Numbered from the stretch's first letter, positions 53,328 to 64,000 are shown. The stretch: 64,000 nucleotides of DNA from Bacteroidia bacterium (GCA_965249955.1 OZ252261.1:2426773-2490772), one strand, 5' to 3'. Translations and numbers: made by a program. The notes: generated by a model from the sequence alone, not told the origin.

Positions 53328-55337
53328 TTACTCAACCAAAAACTTACCGCTACTTATAGCTGTGCCTGTGCTAATACGGTATAGATAAAGTCCCCTTTTC
53401 CAATTGGCTACACTTATAGTATAGTTATAGTAGCCTGCGCTTTGGGCTTGTTGCCAGTTTTCAACCTTTTTACCATCAATAGTATATATTTCAATGGTTA
53501 CATTGCTGTTTTGTGCTACACCATATTGCAGGGTGAAAATACTATGGGCGGGATTGGGGTAAGCATGAAAAACTACTACTTTCTGAATAGGTTCTACACT
53601 TAAGGGGTTTGGTTTTTGTGTAGGTGCAGCAATTTCTTGTACCGTTTTATTTTGTGCAGGTTGGTTGCTAAGCAATACCCTATTGCCATTGTTTAGCGTA
53701 AGAGCTGTTTTGGCAAAATTCTCCACCTTGCTGGGTACATTTATCTTATCACAAAAATAGTAGCTGGCTTGCGCGCTATCCTCTTTCAGGTCTAAAACAA
53801 AATAGCCGTGTTGGTCTACATCAACAAATTTTAAGTGGGGGTTATAGTTGCTGTTTTTTAAGAACGATATAGGGGTGTTTACCCATGCCTCAAACTGGTT
53901 GGCAAGCGGTGCCCCAAAACGCTCATCAAAGTTGGCACTGGTAATACTAGGAGTACAAAATTCCACTGCTACGCTGCCTTGCCCGGTTGAGGGGTTATAA
54001 GTAGGCGATGGAGAAGCATAATTGCTGTTTTGTGCATCGGGGTAAATAACAGGCTGATGGGTAACATCAAACGTCCAGCTGGCATGAGAATCACCGGTGA
54101 TAAAAACCACATTGTTTATGTTGTTTTGCTCAATACTATCAATAATGGCCCAACGCTCGGTAGGGTAGCTTTTCCAAAAATTATTAAAAGGTCTTTCAGC
54201 ATTTCTTATTGAGTTTATGTTTGATGGATCAGGAAATCCTTGCCCGTCTCTTGCTGCAAAACCTACATTTAGATTACTAAAAATTACCTGATTGCCCACC
54301 ACCTTCCACTTGGCTTTAGAGTTCTTTAACCCGTTAGTAAACCATTGGTATTGAGCACTACCCAGTATGGTGCGGGTAGGCGTATCAGGGTCGTCAAAAT
54401 TTGTAGGTGGTTTGTCCCGTCCTTCCAATCGGGTATCCAGCAAAAAAATATCAGCCATATCCCCATAGCTCACCTCACGGTAAACGGTATTATTAGGGTA
54501 GTCGCGTATGGGTAACCACTCAAAATATACCTTTTTACTAATGGCTTTTCGGGTTTCCCAGTCGCCCTCAGTAGCGGGTTGGTGGTTTTGTGCGCCGTCC
54601 TTGTAGCTATCGTTACTACTCTCGTGGTCGTCCCAAACAGTAATAAAGGTGTGTTGTTGGTGTGCGCGTTGCAATTCAGGGTCAAGTTTATAAACCGAAT
54701 ATCGGGTACGATAATCTCCTTCTGTTACCGCTTCGTTTTCAGGCTCAACAAAACGTCCCGTTGTGCTATCGCCCGCTTGTTTGGTTTCGTACTCGTATAT
54801 GTAATCTCCCAAATGTATCACCGCATCCAAATCGTTACGTTCGGCAATTCGGGCAAAAGCATTAAAAAAACCTGCCTCGTAGTTGTTGCACGATACCACT
54901 GCAAAGCGCAAATGATTAACATTTGTAGAAGGTGCAGTGCGAGTTCTGCCAATAGTGCTATAAATGTTATTCCAACTAAAACCATAATAATAGGTAGTAG
55001 CAGGCAAAAGACCTGTTACATCTACCTTCACCGTAAAATCTTTTGTACTATCTGTCGCAATAGTTCCCTTTTTTACCACATTTTTAAGTGATGTATCGGT
55101 AGCCATTACCCAGTTTACTGTAAATGTGGTTTGGGCAGTAGTATCAGGGGTAATACGTGTCCAAATAATTACGCGGTCGGCAAGCGGGTCGCCACTAGCC
55201 ACACCGTGGTAAAAAGGTTTTAGTGCGGGATTAAAAGGTAAATGCCCTGCTTTGCGTATAAACCCCTCCGTTTGCTGGGCTTGGCAAAAGCCTTGGGCAA
55301 CGAGAAGAACAAAACAAAACACAAAAAACTTTTTCAT
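53328..55337 (-). CDS. phoD: PhoD alkaline phosphatase with T9SS C-terminal sorting domain
   Basis: 'FYHGVASGDP', 'HLGDYIYE', 'WDDHE', 'LDTR', 'TGDSH'; tail 'AYPNP...IYTIDGK...GLYLYRI......K...E'. Confidence 0.9.
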   Translation of the reverse strand: MKKFFVFCFVLLVAQGFCQAQQTEGFIRKAGHLPFNPALKPFYHGVASGDPLADRVIIWTRITPDTTAQTTFTVNWVMATDTSLKNVVKKGTIATDSTKDFTVKVDVTGLLPATTYYYGFSWNNIYSTIGRTRTAPSTNVNHLRFAVVSCNNYEAGFFNAFARIAERNDLDAVIHLGDYIYEYETKQAGDSTTGRFVEPENEAVTEGDYRTRYSVYKLDPELQRAHQQHTFITVWDDHESSNDSYKDGAQNHQPATEGDWETRKAISKKVYFEWLPIRDYPNNTVYREVSYGDMADIFLLDTRLEGRDKPPTNFDDPDTPTRTILGSAQYQWFTNGLKNSKAKWKVVGNQVIFSNLNVGFAARDGQGFPDPSNINSIRNAERPFNNFWKSYPTERWAIIDSIEQNNINNVVFITGDSHASWTFDVTHQPVIYPDAQNSNYASPSPTYNPSTGQGSVAVEFCTPSITSANFDERFGAPLANQFEAWVNTPISFLKNSNYNPHLKFVDVDQHGYFVLDLKEDSAQASYYFCDKINVPSKVENFAKTALTLNNGNRVLLSNQPAQNKTVQEIAAPTQKPNPLSVEPIQKVVVFHAYPNPAHSIFTLQYGVAQNSNVTIEIYTIDGKKVENWQQAQSAGYYNYTISVANWKRGLYLYRISTGTAISSGKFLVE

Positions 55338-55460: not shown

Positions 55461-58265
55461 ATGAAATTAAGGATAAGTTTTCTTATTGCATTTACTGCGT
55501 GTACCCTGTTACTGGGCGCGCAGAACACTTATGATGTCTCGGCAAAATTCCCTATCGATACCTCAATACGCACAGGTACATTGCCCAATGGCATGAAATA
55601 TTTTGTACGTCGCAACGCTAAACCCGAAAACAGGGCGGAGCTTCGCCTAGCAGTTAATGTTGGTGCTACTATGGAAACCGACAACCAACAAGGTTTGGCG
55701 CACTTTGTAGAGCACATGTGCTTTAACGGAACCAAAAATTTTAAGAAAAGTGAGTTGGTAGATTATTTAGAATCTATTGGGACAAAATTTGGCCCTCACT
55801 TAAATGCCTATACCAGTTTTGATGAAACCGTATATATGCTGCAAGTTCCTACCGATAGTAGTGAGTATGTAACAAAAGGTTTGCAAATACTGGAAGATTG
55901 GGCGCACAACGTAAGTTTTGAAGGTGAAGAAATAGACAAAGAGCGCGGTGTTGTAACCGAAGAATGGCGTTTGGGCTTAGGTGCAGGCGAGCGTATGCGC
56001 GAAAAATATTTCCCTGTTATTTTTAAAGATAGCCGCTATGCAAACCGCTTGCCTATTGGTAAACCTGAGATTTTAAAAAATGCGCCTTACGATACCCTTC
56101 GTCGTTTTTATAAAGATTGGTACCGCCCAGAATTGATGGCTGTAATAGCTGTTGGAGATTTTGATGTAGATGCTATGGTAGCACGCATTAAAAAACAATT
56201 TTCGCAAATACCTGCTACAAAAAACGGCAAGCCTGTTATTAAATGGGATATACCCAATAACGACAAGCCACTGGTAGCTGTGGTATCAGACAAAGAGAAC
56301 CCTTACACCCAAATACAAATATTTTACAAACACCCTCGCCACGAGGTAAACAATATTGGCGATTACCGTCAAAAATTGGTGTACGATTTATATGCCAGTA
56401 TGTTAAATGCTCGTTTGGCAGAGCTTACCCAAAAACCAGATGCACCATTTATGTATGGAGCTTGCAGTTATGGTAGTTTCCTTCGTCCAAAAGATGTATA
56501 CGCAGCCTTTGCCGTTGTGCCTGATGGTGGTATACAAAAAGGTATTGAAACCCTAATGGTTGAAAATAAACGTGTTCGCGAATTTGGCTTTACTGCTACT
56601 GAGCTTGAGCGAGCCAAACAAGAATTGATGCGCGGTATGGAAAAAAGCTATAACGAACGCACAAAAACAGATTCACGCTCTTATGCCAGCGAGTATATAC
56701 GCCACTTTTTAGAAGGGGAAGTAATACCGGGTATTGGCTTTGAATATGAGATATACAAACGCTACGTGCCGGGTATTAATCTTAATGAGATAAACAAACT
56801 ACCCGCCCAATGGATAACCAACGGTGAAAACATGGTAGCTATGGTATTGATGCCTGAAAAAGACGGACTTGTAATGCCTAGCAACGAAGATGTTTTGAAA
56901 ATGATTGACAATGCAATGGCAAAAGAAGTTACAGCTTATGTAGATGAAGTAACCGATGAGCCTTTGCTATCTACCGTACCCAAAGCAGGCACAATAACTG
57001 CCGAAAAAGGTATTGCAGAAATGGGTGCCACAAGCATTACCCTTAGCAATGGTGTAACAGCTATTTTGAAAACTACTGATTTTAAAAACGATGAAGTATT
57101 GTTTACCTCATACGGTTGGGGAGGTTCATCATTAGCTAGTGAAGCTGATAATCAATCGGCTGATTTTGCCAGTTATGTAATTTCGCAAGGCGGTGTAGGT
57201 AGTTTTAATAATATCCAGTTAGATAAAAAGCTAAAAGGAAAAATAGTACGTGTATCGCCATATATAGATAATTACAAGCAAGGTTTCTCAGGCAGTTGCT
57301 CGCCTGCCGATATTGAAACGGCGATGCAATTAATATACCTGCACGCTACACAGCCCCGCAAGGATGAAGAAGCATTTGGAGCTATTATGGCACAGCAAAA
57401 AGCCTTTACAGCAAACCGTAGCAACGATCCACAAGAGGTGTTTGATGATACCATTACTGTTACAATGGCTAGTTACCACCCACGTGTGCAGCCTATGACC
57501 CTTGCCGAGTTGGAGAAAGTGAACCTTGACCGTGCTTTTGAGATTTACAAAAGCAGTTTTAACAACTTTAACCAAAATACCTTTGTGTTTGTAGGTAATA
57601 TAGATGCAGCCACCTTTAAAAAATTAGCACAGCAATACCTTGGTGCATTGCCTGCTACCAAAGAAACCAAAAACTGGAAAGATTTAGGTATAAAAGCTCC
57701 CAAAGGCAAAATAGAAAAAGTAGTTAAAAAAGGAGTTGAACCCAAAAGCTATGTTGAGTTGCATATGCACGGCAAATTTGAGTGGACACTTAAAAACCGT
57801 TTAGAACTAAATGCTCTTATGAGTGTATTGCGCATAAAACTACGCGAAAACTTGCGCGAAGATAAAGGCGGTGTATACGGCGTTGGTGCATCGGGCTACC
57901 CAAGCAAAATACCTGCCCCCACATATAGCATTACCATACAATTTGGTTGCGCACCAGAGAATGTAGAAACCTTAATTACCAATGTATTGCTTGAGGTTGA
58001 TAAACTAAAAGCCAATGGCCCTGAAGAAAAAGACCTTAAAAAGGTAATAGAAACCATGAAGCGTGAACGTGAAACTGACGTAAAAGAAAACCGCTACTGG
58101 TTAAACGTAATAAGCCAATATAGCCAAAACGGCGAAAAATGGTCAGACTTTAACACCTACAATAAAATAATAGAAGGTATAACTGCCGATACTATTAAAA
58201 AATTAGCCAATCAATATTTGGGTATGGAAAACTATGCACGCTTTGTGCTAATGCCCGAAAACTAA
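55461..58265 (+). CDS. pqqL: M16 family zinc protease (PqqL-like)
   Basis: Inverted zincin motif 'AHFVEHMCF', 'NAYTSFDETVY', 'ERGVV.EEWR', 'LRE.LRE..G.VY'. Confidence 0.9.
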   Translation: MKLRISFLIAFTACTLLLGAQNTYDVSAKFPIDTSIRTGTLPNGMKYFVRRNAKPENRAELRLAVNVGATMETDNQQGLAHFVEHMCFNGTKNFKKSELVDYLESIGTKFGPHLNAYTSFDETVYMLQVPTDSSEYVTKGLQILEDWAHNVSFEGEEIDKERGVVTEEWRLGLGAGERMREKYFPVIFKDSRYANRLPIGKPEILKNAPYDTLRRFYKDWYRPELMAVIAVGDFDVDAMVARIKKQFSQIPATKNGKPVIKWDIPNNDKPLVAVVSDKENPYTQIQIFYKHPRHEVNNIGDYRQKLVYDLYASMLNARLAELTQKPDAPFMYGACSYGSFLRPKDVYAAFAVVPDGGIQKGIETLMVENKRVREFGFTATELERAKQELMRGMEKSYNERTKTDSRSYASEYIRHFLEGEVIPGIGFEYEIYKRYVPGINLNEINKLPAQWITNGENMVAMVLMPEKDGLVMPSNEDVLKMIDNAMAKEVTAYVDEVTDEPLLSTVPKAGTITAEKGIAEMGATSITLSNGVTAILKTTDFKNDEVLFTSYGWGGSSLASEADNQSADFASYVISQGGVGSFNNIQLDKKLKGKIVRVSPYIDNYKQGFSGSCSPADIETAMQLIYLHATQPRKDEEAFGAIMAQQKAFTANRSNDPQEVFDDTITVTMASYHPRVQPMTLAELEKVNLDRAFEIYKSSFNNFNQNTFVFVGNIDAATFKKLAQQYLGALPATKETKNWKDLGIKAPKGKIEKVVKKGVEPKSYVELHMHGKFEWTLKNRLELNALMSVLRIKLRENLREDKGGVYGVGASGYPSKIPAPTYSITIQFGCAPENVETLITNVLLEVDKLKANGPEEKDLKKVIETMKRERETDVKENRYWLNVISQYSQNGEKWSDFNTYNKIIEGITADTIKKLANQYLGMENYARFVLMPEN

Positions 58266-58339: not shown

Positions 58340-59173
58340 TTATTTCAACAATACTTTTCGCACATCAAAATCATCGCGGTGGGCAAGTGCAAAGTTCTGT
58401 GCTATAACCGTATACACCATTTCATAAGCCAATTGTTCCCACCATATATTCATAGTAGCACATACGGCACAATAACCTTTTACCATATTGTTTACATTAC
58501 TTTCAGTAATAAAAGGTTTCACGGCATCAATTAAACCCTGTTCGTGGCCAATTTCAAAATATTTATGCCCGTCAATATATAATTTTGTTAAATCGGCAGC
58601 ATTTTTAGCCGGCATATTCTTTTTTTGTCTATATGCCGTTACCATCTCATCCAAAATCGAAAATTCAGGAATTGCACTTCCTTCAAAAGCCATTAGTGCT
58701 CCTGCTACAAAAGCATTATCAGTGTCTTTAAAAATCAAGTGCATTTTGCGCAAAAAACTTTGGGTTATACCACAGGGTTGGTAATTATCAGTTTCAATGC
58801 CCAAATCAATTTTATAACCTTGCCGCATCATTTCAAGGTGAGGAATATCCTTAGTTTCTTCTCCTTTTTCCTCATTTATATTACGTAATATTTCGTCTTG
58901 CAATAATTTCCAATCGTGGTTGCGCAAGCTGGCATCCAGCAGCATATGTATAGCAGCGTATGAAAATGCCGAGTATTCTTTTATCACAAAAGCCACTTGT
59001 TGTGCATCTACGTCGGCAAGCACAGCTACCACAGGGTTGGTTTGGGGATGAAGTGCCGTAAAGTTATTTTTAAGTAATGTTTTTAAAGCCTCTAGTGCCG
59101 TATCAAAATCAGGGTACTTAACAGCAATTGTTTTTATAGTTTCTTGTTGCGTAACAATTAGTTGTTTTTTCAT
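58340..59173 (-). CDS. Heme-oxygenase-like diiron protein, CADD-like (DUF3865-type)
   Basis: 'NPVV', 'NINEEKG...PH', 'AFEGSAIPE', 'GHKYFEIGHE', 'WWEQL': E...H / E / H..E..H metal-ligand pattern. Confidence 0.75.
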   Translation of the reverse strand: MKKQLIVTQQETIKTIAVKYPDFDTALEALKTLLKNNFTALHPQTNPVVAVLADVDAQQVAFVIKEYSAFSYAAIHMLLDASLRNHDWKLLQDEILRNINEEKGEETKDIPHLEMMRQGYKIDLGIETDNYQPCGITQSFLRKMHLIFKDTDNAFVAGALMAFEGSAIPEFSILDEMVTAYRQKKNMPAKNAADLTKLYIDGHKYFEIGHEQGLIDAVKPFITESNVNNMVKGYCAVCATMNIWWEQLAYEMVYTVIAQNFALAHRDDFDVRKVLLK

Positions 59174-59273
59174 ATATTACTTTACCTTATAAGCAAACGT
59201 AAATATAGCAAAACAAGGGATTAAATAGACGTTAAAAATACTTATGTTTGTGAGACAAGACATAAACAGGGTA

Positions 59274-59942
59274 ATGTTTAACCTTAAAAATATCAAATCG
59301 CTTTTTATTGTTACTGATGACGAGCATACCGGCAGAGAAAAGAAAGAAGCCGAAATAAAAGAAAAGACCAACTCACCTGTAGCACACCCATCAGCAGACA
59401 CTCCTTCGGTTGAGGGTTCTTTTGAAAACCGCATTGCCGAGTCACTTTTTAAAGCACTTGAAGCAAACAATATAGATGGTGTTGATTATTTTGAGTTTAA
59501 AAACTCGTTAAAATCACTCGCAAGTTTACCTATGGATGAGGCTACACGCTACCGTTCGGCATTTGCCACCTCATCAACAATGGGACTTAATTTGCAAATT
59601 CTTACCAGTTCGGCAGGACATTATTTAAAGGTACTTGAAGGTGAAAAGAAGGTGTTTTTAAATTCTGTTTCACACCAAAATACTACCAATGTAATTGGCA
59701 AAGAAAAAACCATTGATGATTTAAATAAACAAATAGCTGATAAATCGGCTACAATAAAAAGGCTAACCGAAGAGATACAGCAGCACCAGTTGCAAATGGA
59801 AAAAGTACGTAGTGAAATTGCGTCGGCTAAAAATCAAATAGCCCAAACAGAGGCAAACTTTAATAACACTTTTGTTTCGCTAACTGCCGAAATAAATGAT
59901 GATATAGCAAAAATTAACAAATACTTAAACCCTCAACAATAA
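59274..59942 (+). CDS. Conserved hypothetical cytoplasmic protein with C-terminal coiled coil
   Basis: 'LFKALEANN..G.DYFEFK.SL..L....MDEATRYRSAFAT...MG' followed by heptad repeats. Start 59274 or 59244. Confidence 0.7.
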   Translation: MFNLKNIKSLFIVTDDEHTGREKKEAEIKEKTNSPVAHPSADTPSVEGSFENRIAESLFKALEANNIDGVDYFEFKNSLKSLASLPMDEATRYRSAFATSSTMGLNLQILTSSAGHYLKVLEGEKKVFLNSVSHQNTTNVIGKEKTIDDLNKQIADKSATIKRLTEEIQQHQLQMEKVRSEIASAKNQIAQTEANFNNTFVSLTAEINDDIAKINKYLNPQQ

Positions 59943-59965
59943 ACTAAATAATAAGTTTAATTACT

Positions 59966-60979
59966 ATGGAAGGAATGAAACCAAAATCGTTTTGGCAAAA
60001 GCCTGAAGGCATTACAGGAATGATTACTGCGGCTATGATAGTTGTGGGTGGGGGGTATTTGCTATACACCTTTTTGCCTTATATCATCAGTTTGATGCAA
60101 AATGCCCTAACGGCAGTTTTGTTATTTATGGGCTTGGGCGCAATAGTTTATATATTACTCGACCCTCGCTTTAGAAACCTTATTTGGTTTGTATATAAAA
60201 GTATAATGCGTGCTTTAACCAGCATTTTTGTACAAATAGACCCTATTGGTATATTAAATACCTATGTAGAAAGTTTGCAAGACAACCTATCAAAAATGGG
60301 AGCCCAAATAGGTAAACTACGCGGGCAAATGCGTAAACTAAAAGATATTATTGATACGAACGAGAAAGAGCGTACCGATAGCTTGGCAATGGCAAGCAAA
60401 GCTCGCGAAAAAGGAAAAAGCAATATTTTAATATTAAAAACACGTAAAGCGGGCAGGTTGCAAGAATCAAACCTAAAACTTACCGACCTATACCGCAAAA
60501 TGGAAGTGCTGTATCGTGTACTTACTAAAATGTATGAAAACAGTGAGGTTTTGATGGAAGATATTAAAGACCAAGTGGCAGTGAAAAAAATGGAGCGCGA
60601 AGCTATTCGCACCAGCCATTCGGCCATGCGCTCGGCATTAAATATAATTAGCGGCGATAAAGACAAACGTATGATGTTTGACCAAGCTATGGAAGCCGTT
60701 GCCGATGACGTGAGCCGCAAAGTAGGGGAGATGGAAAGGTTTATGGAATTATCGCAAACCTTTATGGATGGCGTTGATTTACAAAACGGGGTGTATGAAG
60801 AAAAAGGCTTAGAGATGTTGGAGAAATGGGAGAAAGAAGGAATGTCGTTACTGTTGGGTGATGATAAAAACATATTGCTTACTGAAGGTAGCAGTGGGAT
60901 GAGCACATTAAATATTGAAGACCCTTTGCCCAAAGGGAAGAAATCGGATACCAATCCCTACAATAACTTATTTGAATAA
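59966..60979 (+). CDS. Membrane-anchored PspA/IM30-like coiled-coil protein
   Basis: N-terminal TM hairpin, 'IDPIGILNTYVESL' (cf. PspA 'DP..ML...I..M'), long all-helical coiled coil. Confidence 0.6.
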   Translation: MEGMKPKSFWQKPEGITGMITAAMIVVGGGYLLYTFLPYIISLMQNALTAVLLFMGLGAIVYILLDPRFRNLIWFVYKSIMRALTSIFVQIDPIGILNTYVESLQDNLSKMGAQIGKLRGQMRKLKDIIDTNEKERTDSLAMASKAREKGKSNILILKTRKAGRLQESNLKLTDLYRKMEVLYRVLTKMYENSEVLMEDIKDQVAVKKMEREAIRTSHSAMRSALNIISGDKDKRMMFDQAMEAVADDVSRKVGEMERFMELSQTFMDGVDLQNGVYEEKGLEMLEKWEKEGMSLLLGDDKNILLTEGSSGMSTLNIEDPLPKGKKSDTNPYNNLFE

Positions 60980-61006
60980 TTTTTTAATTCTTAAATACAC
61001 ATCGAC

Positions 61007-62545
61007 ATGAAACCTAGGTTAACCCCATTTTCAAAGCTACTAATCACCATTATTGTTGTTGGTGGCTTGGGCTATCTTATATACACATTAGCAAACAATA
61101 AAAACATTACCGAAAAACTATTGCCAAAAGGTAAAAACGGTCAAACCAGCGGTGATTACGATAGAGATGAAGTAATACGTGTAGGCGTAGTTACTTGGGG
61201 TGGTTATGCCGGTGGTGAATATTTTAACGAAGGTTTTAAACCCTCAAAAGAATCTCGTTTTTCAAAAGAATACGGTATTAATGTAGAGTTTGTTTTGAAC
61301 GATGATTTCAACTCGTCACGCGAAGCATGGAAAGCAGGCGAAATAGATGTATTGTGGACTACTATCGATGCTTTTCCTACAGAAGTAGAAGGCTTTAGAG
61401 ATTTAGACCCACAAGTTATATTCCAAGCCGATTGGTCGCGCGGGGGAGATGCCCTAGTAGTGCGCAGAGGTATAGAAACTGTTGCCGACCTTAAAGGAAA
61501 AAAAGTAGCTGTTGCACCCATGACTCCATCAAACACCTTTTTAATTTGGTTATTGAATGCTGGTGGACTGAAAAAAGAAGATATACAAATAATAGAAGCA
61601 CCAAACGCTATTGATGCTGCTGCGTACTTTAAAGCAAACCGTGTTGATGCAGCAGTAGTTTGGAGTCCTGATGATGAAGACTGCGTTAACAATGTAAAAG
61701 GGGCAAAAATATTGCGCAATACCAAATCAGCCTCAAATATTATTGCCGACGTATTTTTTGTTAAAAAAGAGTACCTATCAAAAAATCGTGAAGACTTAGG
61801 TAAACTAGTTGAAGGTTGGTTGCGTGGGGCTGCTGAAATTAACGCATCAGAAAGCAACAAACGCAAAGCAGCTAAAATATTGGCCGATGGTCTTAGCCAA
61901 CCCGAAGATTTTTGCTACAATGCCATTAACAATGCACGCTTGTGTACCTATGGCGATAATGTAAACTTTTTTAACATCAACGGAAATTACACTGGTGTTA
62001 AAGGCGAAGATATTTATAACCAAATGAGCAAAGCCTACTACAACTGGGGCTATGCATCCGCTAATGTACCTGCCTTTAGGTTAATATCCGATGCATCATT
62101 AGTAAAAGAGATTTCTCTAAGCGGTAGCGAACACAATGCAGAAGGGCAAGCTGAGTTTTCGCCTGTTACTAAAGAATTAAAATCTACCCCTGCGTTTTCA
62201 AGTAAAGGCATAACAATAACTTTTGCCACAGGCAGCTATACCCTTGACGAAAACGCTAAATATATTATAGATTTAGAGTTTAGCGAGATAGCCAAAGCAT
62301 TTGGTAATGCCCGTGTGCGTATTGAAGGAAACACAGATAATGTAGGTAGCGAAGCATCAAACAAATTATTATCAGAGCGTAGGGCACAGGCCGTAGCTGA
62401 TTATTTAGCTACTGAGCACAACCTGCCTCGCAATAAATTTGTGATAGTAGGTAATGGCAGCACCAAACCCGTAGCTGATAACGACACTGAAAAGGGAAGG
62501 GCAAAAAATCGCCGTACCGATTTCCAATTATTGGCTGAGGAATAA
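61007..62545 (+). CDS. NitT/TauT-type (SsuA/NMT1-like) substrate-binding protein fused to OmpA-like C-terminal domain
   Basis: Signal anchor; 'VVTWGGY', 'DWSRGGD', 'DLKGKKVAV'; OmpA-C 'IEGNTDNVGSEASN..LSERRAQAV...GNGS..P.....GRAKNRR'. Confidence 0.88.
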   Translation: MKPRLTPFSKLLITIIVVGGLGYLIYTLANNKNITEKLLPKGKNGQTSGDYDRDEVIRVGVVTWGGYAGGEYFNEGFKPSKESRFSKEYGINVEFVLNDDFNSSREAWKAGEIDVLWTTIDAFPTEVEGFRDLDPQVIFQADWSRGGDALVVRRGIETVADLKGKKVAVAPMTPSNTFLIWLLNAGGLKKEDIQIIEAPNAIDAAAYFKANRVDAAVVWSPDDEDCVNNVKGAKILRNTKSASNIIADVFFVKKEYLSKNREDLGKLVEGWLRGAAEINASESNKRKAAKILADGLSQPEDFCYNAINNARLCTYGDNVNFFNINGNYTGVKGEDIYNQMSKAYYNWGYASANVPAFRLISDASLVKEISLSGSEHNAEGQAEFSPVTKELKSTPAFSSKGITITFATGSYTLDENAKYIIDLEFSEIAKAFGNARVRIEGNTDNVGSEASNKLLSERRAQAVADYLATEHNLPRNKFVIVGNGSTKPVADNDTEKGRAKNRRTDFQLLAEE

Positions 62546-62551
62546 AATCGG

Positions 62552-63349
62552 ATGAAAAAGATTGTTAAAGAACTTTTTACCCTGCGGGGAACTTTACCCA
62601 AACCGCTATTTACTGCAATAGAGATTACGGGGATTGTACTTTTATTGGTTATTTGGTATAGTATTACTGCAGCACAGCTTATACCCTCATCGCTAATGCC
62701 ATCGCCACAAAAAGTACTTAGCTCATACAGCGAGTTACACTATCGCGATGCGCTGATACGCAATTCTTTTTTCTCAATTAAACTAAACTTTTTAGGGTAT
62801 TTGGTAGCTACTGTTATAGCTATACCACTGGGTTTTGTTATAGGGCTGTTTCCTTTGTTCCGTTCATTGTTCAATCGTCCTGTTGATGCTATACGTTTTT
62901 TACCTCTAACGGCAGTTACAGGTATTTTTATAGCATGGTTTGGTATTGATACCGATATGAAGGTGTACTTTTTGGCCTTTGGTATTATAGTATACCTACT
63001 ACCTGTTGTGGTGCAACGTATAGATGAGGTTGAGAAAATTTATTTGCAAACTGTATATACTTTAGGTGCAAACAAATGGCAAACCATTATTACGGTGTTT
63101 ATACCCAATGTAATGGCAAAACTAAGCGATGATATACGTGTGCTTGTGGCTATGAGTTGGACCTATATAATTGTGGCCGAACTGATAAACAAAACAGGCG
63201 GACTTGGGGGCTTGGCTTGGGAAGCACAACGCCAAAGCCGCATTGATAAGCTGTTTGCCATACTATTGGTAATAATACTAATAGGTTTTTTGCAGGATAA
63301 GTTGTTTAAACTTATTGATAAGCTGTTGTTTAAGCACAAATACAAATAA
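62552..63349 (+). CDS. ABC transporter permease (SsuC/TauC-like)
   Basis: 'L.P.P..V', 'PLGF.IG', 'R.LP..A', EAA-like loop 'YTLGA.KWQ', 'W..IIVAEL'. Confidence 0.92.
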   Translation: MKKIVKELFTLRGTLPKPLFTAIEITGIVLLLVIWYSITAAQLIPSSLMPSPQKVLSSYSELHYRDALIRNSFFSIKLNFLGYLVATVIAIPLGFVIGLFPLFRSLFNRPVDAIRFLPLTAVTGIFIAWFGIDTDMKVYFLAFGIIVYLLPVVVQRIDEVEKIYLQTVYTLGANKWQTIITVFIPNVMAKLSDDIRVLVAMSWTYIIVAELINKTGGLGGLAWEAQRQSRIDKLFAILLVIILIGFLQDKLFKLIDKLLFKHKYK

Positions 63350-63357
63350 GAGATTTT

Positions 63358-64000
63358 ATGAGCGGTACTTTTTTTGAATCGTCGTTGCCCAATATTATCG
63401 AGCTAAGAAATATTAAGCAAACCTACGATGGGAAGAAATATATTTTTGACGGATGCGATTTTGTAGTGCCCGATAAACCCAATCAAGGACAGTTTGTAGC
63501 TCTTATGGGTGCCTCAGGTTGCGGAAAATCTACCCTGTTGCGCTATATATGCAATTTGCAACAACCTACCGAGGGTACCGTTTTAGTAAATGGCAAGCCT
63601 GTTGACGACGAGGGCGAAAGGGTGAGTATGGTTTTCCAAAACTACTCGTCATTACCTTGGTTTACAGTATTAGAAAACGTAGCACTGCCTTTAAAATTTA
63701 AAGGCATAGGCGAAAAAGAGCGCGAAGAAAAAGCAATGGAGATGATACAACTGGTAGGCTTAGACGGACATCAGAATAAGTTTGCCAAAATGCCCGGTCT
63801 TTCGGGCGGTCAGTTGCAGCGCGTAGCCATAGCCCGTAGTCTTATAGCCAATCCAAACATAATTGTGATGGACGAGCCTTTTGGGGCATTAGATATTAAT
63901 ACAAGGCTGAAAATGCAGGATATGCTTGAGGATATTTGGCTCAAATTTCACTCTACCATTGTATTTGTAACACACGATATTACAGAAGCGGTATACTTGG
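63358..64000 (+). CDS. ABC transporter ATP-binding protein (SsuB/TauB-like), 3'-truncated by window edge
   Basis: Not in the ORF track; translated by hand from ATG 63358: MSGTFFES...GASGCGKST...LSGGQLQRVAIARSL...MDEPFGALD. Confidence 0.93.
   Translation, partial: MSGTFFESSLPNIIELRNIKQTYDGKKYIFDGCDFVVPDKPNQGQFVALMGASGCGKSTLLRYICNLQQPTEGTVLVNGKPVDDEGERVSMVFQNYSSLPWFTVLENVALPLKFKGIGEKEREEKAMEMIQLVGLDGHQNKFAKMPGLSGGQLQRVAIARSLIANPNIIVMDEPFGALDINTRLKMQDMLEDIWLKFHSTIVFVTHDITEAVYL

Follow-up and report, generated by a model that had tools for sequence, protein, structure and literature searches.

A 64,000-nucleotide stretch of Bacteroidia bacterium DNA (GCA_965249955.1, OZ252261.1:2426773-2490772), analysed here at its full length and referred to as the window, ends in a block of five co-oriented open reading frames (ORFs) on the + strand, named g1 to g5. 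The first two encode a coiled-coil protein and a protein with a putative membrane anchor and a predicted resemblance to ESCRT-III and PspA, and the other three encode the binding protein, permease and ATPase of an ATP-binding cassette (ABC) transporter. The five genes, together referred to as the cassette, are arranged as follows.

59274-59942 (alternative ATG at 59244), + strand: g1, coiled-coil protein, 222 aa
59966-60979, + strand: g2, ESCRT-III/PspA-like candidate, 337 aa
61007-62545, + strand: g3, binding protein fused to an OmpA-like domain, 512 aa
62552-63349, + strand: g4, ABC importer permease, 265 aa
63358-64000, running past the window end, + strand: g5, ABC ATPase, first 214 of 273 residues inside the window

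The genes are separated by gaps of 23, 27, 6 and 8 nt, which bears out an earlier description of the locus as five co-oriented genes with gaps of 6-27 nt, made from the sequence alone (the sequence-only reading). Inside the block, no + strand terminator-like site stands out beyond chance level. The start of g1 at 59274 (MFNLKN...), which the same reading had adopted, proved the better choice, being the start of most homologues in the alignment. Contigs encoding identical proteins (L132-L134; L numbers denote the loci and contigs compared in this study) supply the full 273-aa length of g5 and show it to be the final gene of the block; one contig bearing identical cassette proteins is 3.8 Mb in size. 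A chance arrangement of the five genes is excluded because many homologues exist for each of them.

The membrane-anchored protein g2 and its partner g1

PspA, Vipp1 and ESCRT-III proteins are universal polymers of membrane repair and remodelling. The g2 protein opens with two hydrophobic segments (residues ~19-41 and ~45-65) that form a putative transmembrane (TM) hairpin, with basic residues on both cytoplasmic sides. Canonical members of the PspA/IM30 (ESCRT-III) family have no such hairpin. Directly before the 'IDP' at the start of alpha1, residues 67-88 form a basic amphipathic helix (hydrophobic moment ~0.55), corresponding to the alpha0-like N-terminal amphipathic helix expected of that family. 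An AlphaFold2 (AF2) model built from 55 diverse sequences, with a predicted local distance difference test (pLDDT) score of 73, places helices at residues 93-149, 152-225, 235-269 and 279-290, and their lengths match alpha1, alpha2/3, alpha4 and alpha5 of PspA/Vipp1. The ESCRT-III core fold, an alpha1/alpha2-3 hairpin followed by alpha4 and alpha5, is present in this predicted structure.

When the model was compared with the PDB by Foldseek, Vipp1 accounted for 10 of the 14 top matches and CHMP1B/IST1 or CHMP2A-CHMP3 filaments for the remaining four, with Asgard ESCRT-IIIB appearing at rank 22. The Vipp1 matches (7o3w, 7o3x, 8qbw, 9eom and 6zvr) reach a probability of 1.0, and the g2 hairpin aligns with the Vipp1 fragment 6zvs_A at a TM-score of 0.86 and a root mean square deviation of 2.3 Å over 136 columns. 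At the sequence level, PF04012 is the commonest Pfam match among g2 relatives scanned singly (11 of 17 in one set, 21 of 55 in another), every such match being sub-threshold, with a best E of 4.5e-6. Some g2 homologues also carry the JGI or NCBI labels 'phage shock protein A' or 'PspA/IM30'.

Several tests weigh against this assignment. The window copy of g2 reaches no Pfam threshold for PspA or Snf7, including the curated one for PF04012, to which it gives no match even at E<=0.1. Searches of Pfam, NCBIfam, PHROGs and PADLOC returned no family assignment for g2, Pfam and NCBIfam yielding coiled-coil noise alone, and its family profile found no match among PDB sequences. Alignment by hhalign with a single E. 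coli PspA sequence gave a probability of 1%; the same alignment placed the 'DP' start of alpha1 in register. The Foldseek E-values are themselves weak (best 7e-3), and matches of this kind are drawn by long helical proteins. Given these negative sequence tests and weak E-values, the ESCRT-III assignment of g2 rests on a predicted structure of pLDDT 73. On the balance of the fold matches and the recurrence of PF04012, g2 is, with moderate confidence, a predicted TM-anchored ESCRT-III/PspA-like protein, as the sequence-only reading had proposed.

The family to which g2 belongs is large. Within a collection clustered at 90% identity, 5343 homologues were recovered at E<=1e-3. Clustering at 50% identity gives 1381 clusters, of which 553 reach E<=1e-30, and matches occur in at least 574 species genomes. 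An N-terminal cytoplasmic motif (KSFWxKPEGxTGM as described for g2, KSFWxRPEGTTGM across the family) and a C-terminal motif, [YF]xx[LM][FLI], are kept from Bacteroidota to phages, as is a flexible tail. The operon consists of g1-g5 alone, and no PspB, PspC, PspF, LiaI or LiaFSR partner is encoded in it.

Two further features of g2 were noted and set aside. One UniRef entry (P0025 and its cluster, Xanthocytophaga flava) calls a g2 homologue 'Gliding motility protein GldL'. Identity with GldL/PorL was rejected, GldL being absent from the top 25 Pfam families listed for the 17 or 55 members, and the label looks like an annotation error that could propagate. A Gly-Gly-x-Tyr/Phe feature lies at similar depth in the first TM helix of g2 (IVVGGGYLLY; 59966-60100) and in the TM anchor of g3 (IVVGGLGYLIY; 61007-61100). 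This 'GGxY' recurs in many phage copies and could be a packing motif or a product of composition; it was judged too compositional to count as evidence.

The product of g1, a cytoplasmic protein, is of a different kind. Homologue alignment reveals a conserved N-terminal peptide, KxKSLFIVxD, followed by a low-complexity Pro/Thr/Ser linker and a small conserved three-helix domain (NN.DG.DYFEF...P.DEATR..SAFA). The AF2 model (pLDDT 79) consists of three short helices and one helix of ~110 residues, predicted to form a coiled coil. Neither sequence nor fold comparison with the PDB gave a significant match for g1, and Pfam, NCBIfam, PHROG and PADLOC assign it to no family. A PspA-like or g2-like identity was considered and rejected, the model showing a single long helix and a small domain with no fold match, and hhalign returning 14% between g1 and g2. 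From the missing PDB match and the lack of profile similarity to g2, it follows that g1 is a new coiled-coil partner and not a second PspA. Structure prediction and fold search, which the sequence-only reading had suggested for both coiled-coil proteins, thus recovered a PspA/Vipp1/ESCRT-III fold for g2 and no PspA hairpin for g1. Conservation of the g1 N-terminal motif and of the g2 terminal motifs from bacteria to phages suggests that these motifs find their partners within the cassette.

The g3-g5 transporter and the spread of the cassette

The g3 protein combines an N-terminal TM anchor, a periplasmic domain of the SsuA/TauA/NMT1 class (residues ~60-390) and an OmpA-like domain (residues 405-502). 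The last of these matches PF00691 at 8.1e-22 (77.8 bits against a cutoff of 27.2) and carries the peptidoglycan-binding motif NTDxxG...LSxxRA in the form 'NTDNVGS...LSERRAQAV'. Besides OmpA, Pfam matches comprise NMT1, NMT1_2 and Phosphonate-bd, while in the PDB the protein matches TauA (6ssy), SsuA (2x26) and numerous OmpA-like domains. The alignment of its binding domain to E. coli TauA and SsuA takes in the Ser/Thr-rich loop after the central strand, and the full-length protein matches phrog_25518 at 1.9e-58. The g4 permease matches BPD_transp_1 at 2.7e-15. The g5 ATPase matches ABC_tran at 3e-32, with intact Walker A (GASGCGKST), Q-loop, LSGGQ, Walker B (IIVMDEP) and H-loop motifs. The original domain calls for g3, g4 and g5 therefore hold in Pfam and NCBIfam.

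With a BPD_transp_1 permease, a motif-intact ABC ATPase and an NMT1/SsuA-class binding protein, g3-g5 appear to make up a whole type I importer, intact in its catalytic motifs and resembling TauA/SsuA in the region of the binding site. The substrate cannot be named because all NCBIfam equivalog scores fall far under their cutoffs: g3 scores 87 bits against 334 for TIGR03427 and 77 against 163.5 for SsuA_fam, and g4, whose closest models are SaoP, TauC and SsuC, scores 124 against 295 for SaoP. No catabolic or assimilatory gene, including any of the tauD or ssuDE type, lies beside the transporter in the operon or its surroundings.

Co-occurrence in Bacteroidota was assessed in the 80 species genomes with the closest g2 (Saprospiraceae, Lewinellaceae, Chitinophagales, Cytophagales and Sphingobacteriales). 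These loci are the most window-like and hence a biased sample, so that the fractions given here describe that neighbourhood of the family and not the phylum. Directly upstream of g2, g1 is found in 60 of the 73 evaluable loci. Enough downstream sequence was available in 58 loci, of which 20 contain g3, g4 and g5, 10 contain g3 only, three contain a partial set and 25 contain none of the three; g3 is accordingly present in 33 of the 58. In Flavilitoribacter, g1-g2-g3 are followed by unrelated genes, whereas the block in Xanthocytophaga, a Cytophagaceae variant that retains the theme with a divergent type of binding protein, comprises g1, g2, a TM-anchored Ppx/GppA-like protein, a 595-aa SBP-like OmpA protein (SBP, substrate-binding protein), a permease and an ATPase. 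The ~600-aa and ~520-aa types of SBP-OmpA protein are homologous over their whole non-OmpA part (hhalign probability 99.5%, E 9e-23). Bacterial g2 copies in the sample share 53-84% identity with one another (mean 67%).

Two additional genes recur next to g2 in some of these bacteria. The Ppx/GppA-like protein of Xanthocytophaga (L003 and L004, 9140-10171), periplasmic and of the ASKHA-fold phosphatase type, is encoded between g2 and the SBP-OmpA gene, and a similar protein is encoded just 3' of g2 in a Spirosomataceae metagenome-assembled genome (L009, 2103-3140). This insertion may be a hint of a phosphate-related solute in that variant. In many Lewinellaceae and Saprospiraceae without adjacent g3-g5, the gene after g2 encodes a ~185-aa protein without family assignment, which carries a signal peptide and, at its C terminus, a highly basic tail whose last residues are FNWKFWEN (L010 4873-5424, L026 10120-10671, L031 10162-10833, L065 10088-10663, and others alike).

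The cassette also occurs in very large phages. A tblastn search with g2 of 50,697 phage genomes produced matches only in genomes of at least 343 kb, namely Ralstonia jumbo phage RsoM2USA and all 15 Lak megaphage records. Lak-A1 carries the complete g1-g2-g3-g4-g5 set in the same order as the window. Searching with g3 added LR756501/LR756503 of 735 kb, likewise with the complete cassette, together with Bacillus phage G and LR756511, which encode an SBP-OmpA protein, a permease and an ATPase with no statistically detectable g1-g2. A scan of IMG/VR contributed 35 viral contigs, 11 of them of 223-452 kb, and most hold the complete cassette. Across the 40 phage-like loci, several of which end early at contig ends, g1 and g2 are each present in 40, g3 in 34, g4 in 31 and g5 in 29, and g1 lies directly upstream of g2 in every one. 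The genes around these loci are hallmarks of phages; among them are those for a family of virion structural proteins, an RNA ligase and HNH endonucleases. Phage copies of g2 are far more diverse than bacterial ones, with a mean identity of 38%.

In RsoM2USA, g1 corresponds to gp55 and g2 to gp54, and an NMT1_3 binding protein, gp52, lies two genes downstream (L089 8328-9230; NMT1_3 at 2.4e-34). This protein lacks an OmpA domain, and neither a permease nor an ATPase is encoded nearby. In the published description of this phage, ORF54 figures only as an integral membrane protein resembling 'Phage shock protein A', and the latent period is given as 270 min. A ~300-aa protein related to gp52 is encoded further downstream in 13 of the phage-like loci. 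Six distant representatives extend the picture: three are phage-like with the full cassette (L085, L086 and L130), two are short contigs holding little besides cassette genes (L087 and L129), and one is a Bacteroidota chromosome with g1-g2-g3 (L131). A homologue search with Lak g2 for relatives in gut Bacteroidales returned 99%-identical Lak variants only and was uninformative.

Phage G, with a genome of 497 kb and a Gram-positive host, encodes a permease, an ATPase and two SBP-OmpA proteins in the gp243-gp250 region (L127 3115-10200). Among these genes lie gp246, whose N-terminal KKSFFERIGVV resembles the g1 motif, and gp247, which has one TM helix and long helices and to which PF04012 aligns end to end at E=0.36. 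Homology of gp246 and gp247 to g1 and g2 was not accepted, the statistics being non-significant, and the match in architecture is retained as an analogy only.

Taken over both bacteria and phages, g1-g2 keep company with the genes for the OmpA-fused binding protein, the permease and the ATPase even where g2 identity has fallen to ~23-30%. A lack of such co-conservation, together with coiled-coil proteins that do not model as a PspA hairpin, had been named in advance by the sequence-only reading among the grounds for abandoning it; the co-conservation was found, and the reading was not refuted on this count.

A proposed role and competing explanations

Inner-membrane maintenance coupled to solute uptake is the most likely role of the cassette. 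In the explanation that we favour, and to which we assign a probability of roughly one half, g1+g2 and g3-g5 are two cooperating modules that preserve the integrity and energisation of the inner membrane during envelope stress and, in huge phages, for the whole of a very long infection. The g2 protein would reside in the inner membrane through an N-in/C-in TM hairpin, with its ESCRT-III/PspA-type domain on the cytoplasmic face, where it would polymerise. Through the conserved short motifs, g1 would bind g2 or couple it to the transporter. The g3 protein would be held at a fixed position between the inner membrane, by its TM helix, and the peptidoglycan, by its OmpA-like domain, and g3-g5 would probably import a small anionic or zwitterionic solute at that site. 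Acting jointly, g1-g2 and g3-g5 would maintain an intact, energised inner membrane.

The joint inheritance of both modules in Bacteroidota and in huge phages suggests that they act in one process. Because the largest phages keep the whole cassette, the five genes appear to have been selected together for a function that is useful to the phage, and this usefulness fits membrane maintenance during long infection better than defence. The sequence-only reading had envisaged a membrane-wall surveillance or remodelling machine, or else a stress, anti-phage or toxin-response module. Of this interpretation, the PspA-like anchor, the conserved pair and the link to the ABC genes found support, whereas the PspA-type hairpin of g1 and the anti-phage role did not.

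Some of the distribution data count against cooperation between the modules. They are separable, as the 25 of 58 bacterial loci with no g3-g5 near g2 indicate; g2 occurs without g1 in ~13 of 73 loci; phage G and LR756511 carry the transporter genes without detectable g1-g2; and the bacterial fractions come from the biased sample described above.

The modules may also be merely neighbours with unrelated functions, g1-g2 being a membrane-stress pair and g3-g5 an ordinary importer that works without it. This is the main rival, plausible because each module also occurs alone, and we regard it as possible but less likely than cooperation. The importer's cargo in that case would be a sulfonate, nitrate, bicarbonate, a phosphonate or a compound resembling a thiamine precursor, and phages would carry the importer as an auxiliary metabolic function, much as cyanophages carry PstS. 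The presence of every canonical importer part, with intact catalytic motifs and alignment to TauA/SsuA, agrees with such independence. SBP-OmpA fusions are, moreover, known for other transporters, as the NCBI name 'phosphate ABC transporter substrate-binding/OmpA family protein' illustrates. What speaks for cooperation instead is that the same five-gene order recurs in Bacteroidota, Lak, the 735-kb phage and ~30 other viral contigs, at 23-48% g2 identity and in differing surroundings. In addition, 13 loci retain g3 next to g1-g2 although no complete permease-ATPase pair lies in the vicinity (g3 alone in 10, a partial set in three), RsoM2USA keeps only the binding protein near g1-g2, and the importer is accompanied by no catabolic or assimilatory gene. 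Gene neighbourhoods described in PMC11237479 likewise pair PspA/TM-Snf7 proteins with a PBPB protein in other lineages, whether or not ABC genes are present. The fidelity with which g3 stays with g1-g2, exceeding that of its own permease and ATPase, slightly favours yet another arrangement, a sensor-effector machine in which tethered g3 senses a periplasmic ligand or the membrane-wall geometry and TM contacts trigger polymerisation of g2, while the ABC ATPase serves signalling or energising and not nutrition. This is essentially the earlier idea of surveillance, and we consider it unlikely. The double tether of TM helix and OmpA-like domain is conserved in both SBP subtypes, the short motifs of g1 and g2 suggest partners inside the cassette, and no AAA+ ATPase accompanies this version, unlike the Handelsmanbacteria operon described in PMC11237479; all three are in keeping with a sensor. 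The importer components are less so: the fold of g4 is that of type I importers (BPD_transp_1) and is not known to relay mechanical signals, g5 is a plain 273-aa TauB-like ATPase, and sensors resembling binding proteins normally pair with kinases or chemoreceptors.

The two remaining explanations are further from the evidence. Membrane fission or cell division, with g2 polymerising as in archaeal Cdv or vesicle budding and, in phages, building or pinching internal membranes, would draw on the ESCRT-III superfamily fold predicted for g2, on a permanent membrane anchor and wall tether that could fix the site of action, and on the presence of the cassette in phages with the largest genomes. Bacterial PspA/Vipp1 relatives are, however, known for membrane maintenance and not division, no Vps4-like AAA+ ATPase is encoded in the operon or adjoining it, and none of the loci examined is linked to division genes; we therefore hold this role to be very unlikely. 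Still less probable is anti-phage defence or abortive infection analogous to Zorya, a wall-anchored membrane complex with a long cytoplasmic coiled coil that the cassette loosely resembles in architecture. In PADLOC, the OmpA-like domain weakly matched ZorB (1.8e-10) and the coiled coils matched LmuB and ZorC very weakly, but these matches reflect generic MotB/OmpA or coiled-coil similarity, and PADLOC identified no defence system. The bacterial copies of g2, at 53-84% identity across several Bacteroidota orders, have housekeeping flanks rather than defence islands. An anti-phage role is unlikely because the PADLOC matches are generic and because lytic huge phages themselves encode the cassette.

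A stronger form of the favoured maintenance role can also be put forward, if only tentatively. The cassette may be a self-contained remodelling and maintenance machine, brought along by the largest phages (Lak, the 735-kb phage and many IMG/VR contigs of 200-450 kb) to control the host inner membrane in very long infections. Its parts would be an ESCRT-III-like polymer with a TM anchor, g1 as an adaptor, and an ABC unit pinned to the wall by which the polymer is positioned, fuelled or gated, and it would act as a housekeeping envelope system in Bacteroidota. If this were true, it would be the first virus-encoded ESCRT-III system in bacteria, and in g2 a relative of ESCRT-III would for the first time be tied mechanistically to an ABC transporter rather than to a Vps4-type AAA+ ATPase.

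For the study of how bacterial members of the PspA/Vipp1/ESCRT-III superfamily are positioned and regulated, the g2 family offers a naturally anchored version with one dedicated partner. Its genes are, in addition, linked in a conserved way to those of a wall-tethered ABC transporter, and the operon is compact enough to be deleted or expressed whole. That the largest phages hold the cassette intact, while Bacteroidota often hold only parts of it, suggests that control of the host inner membrane, or of one particular solute, is limiting for very large phages. As a cultured jumbo phage with g1-g2 and a 270-min latent period, RsoM2USA provides an experimental entry point. Even if the modules are independent, this work adds a large unannotated ESCRT-III-like family (the 1381 clusters at 50% identity) and a widespread SBP-OmpA importer to the annotation record.

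Chromosomal setting and relation to known systems

Elsewhere the window contains ordinary Bacteroidota chromosomal genes, among them those for ATP synthase beta, TamB, a PhoD-like enzyme and an M16 peptidase, and the cassette is therefore chromosomal here and not part of a prophage. Features around and within the block are listed below.

53328-55337, - strand: PhoD-like phosphodiesterase with a type IX secretion system (T9SS) C-terminal sorting domain, upstream of the cassette
55461-58265, + strand: M16 peptidase, 934 aa, upstream of the cassette
58340-59173, - strand: DUF3865/haem-oxygenase-like gene (iron-containing redox enzyme), divergent from g1 and sharing its promoter region
59243-59250, + strand: possible Bacteroidetes-type -7 box TAtgTTTG, ~24 nt 5' of the g1 start and overlapping the ATG at 59244
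60262-60954, - strand: antisense ORF of 230 aa within g2
61204-61866, - strand: antisense ORF of 220 aa within g3

The -7 box is a weak candidate, a single consensus match read from the sequence and expected by chance ~1 time per 2 kb; sigma-70 promoter scans are uninformative for the Bacteroidetes phylum. The two antisense ORFs are most likely not genes, their translations being of low complexity and rich in Ser, Phe and Ile. A homologue of the DUF3865 gene with 59% identity occupies the same position in a related locus (L005). Beyond the operon, ~180-2500 nt past position 64000 in L132-L134, lie a convergent gene for an HtrA/DegP-type protease (Trypsin_2 and PDZ domains) and then one for a sigma factor of the extracytoplasmic function (ECF) type. 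Proteases and sigma factors of these types are classical envelope-stress genes. Their proximity was dropped as evidence for a stress regulon, the adjacency not being kept in the related loci L005 and L080.

Among characterised systems, PspA, Vipp1 (IM30) and LiaH (PF04012) are the closest to g2, which shares their alpha0-like helix, alpha1-alpha5 core and helix lengths in its predicted structure and would likewise work from the cytoplasmic side of the inner membrane. PspA and LiaH depend on PspBC or LiaI for their recruitment to the membrane, whereas g2 appears to be permanently anchored by its own TM hairpin. Unlike these proteins, g2 also has conserved short terminal motifs, a sub-threshold Pfam score and a g1 partner, and its operon lacks PspBC, PspF, LiaI and LiaFSR. 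By analogy with the LiaI-LiaH system of Bacillus subtilis, g2 resembles a fusion of a two-TM LiaI-like anchor with a LiaH-like PspA protein; a sequence relationship to LiaI was not seen, and LiaFSR-type regulators are not encoded nearby.

The transporter genes belong to the same classes of binding protein, permease and ATPase as TauABC, SsuABC and NrtABCD of the NitT/TauT family. They differ from TauABC and SsuABC in scoring far under the equivalog cutoffs, in the absence of tauD or ssuDE-type genes, and in a g3 protein that is TM-anchored and fused to an OmpA-like domain.

The nearest precedent for the combination comes from Ravi, Anantharaman, Aravind, Gennaro et al. (mSystems 2024, PMC11237479), who described membrane-anchored divergent Snf7 proteins ('SIG+TM+Snf7') from gene neighbourhoods. 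The neighbourhoods concerned include those of OGG56892.1, CBH24266.1 and AKJ06548.1. In Handelsmanbacteria (OGG56892.1) the anchored protein is associated with PspA, a double AAA+ ATPase, an ABC ATPase, a permease and a 'SIG+PBPB+OmpA' protein; in Archangium with PspA and a PBPB protein; and in Salinibacter with PspA, the coiled-coil protein 'Rmar_0091' being encoded directly upstream. These authors propose a tie between membrane remodelling and solute transport. The window cassette follows this theme, in that a gene for a predicted membrane-anchored ESCRT-III-like protein adjoins genes for an OmpA-fused binding protein, a permease and an ABC ATPase, and the placement of 'Rmar_0091' upstream of the TM-Snf7 gene parallels that of g1 upstream of g2.

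Gene order differs between the operon described there and the window cassette, and neither the separate soluble PspA nor the double AAA+ ATPase of that version is encoded in the window operon or within 6 kb downstream. The domain that those authors call Snf7-like is placed nearer to PspA/Vipp1 by our tests of g2. Judged by gene neighbourhood, g1-g2 are the probable counterpart of their coiled-coil/TM-Snf7 pair. Phages are not mentioned in the searched passages of PMC11237479, and our literature searches found no paper on the five-gene cassette in this compact form, on how widely it occurs in Bacteroidota or on its carriage by huge phages. The cassette described here seems to be a fresh version, with an apparently unreported intact form in the largest phages, of a theme known computationally since 2024.

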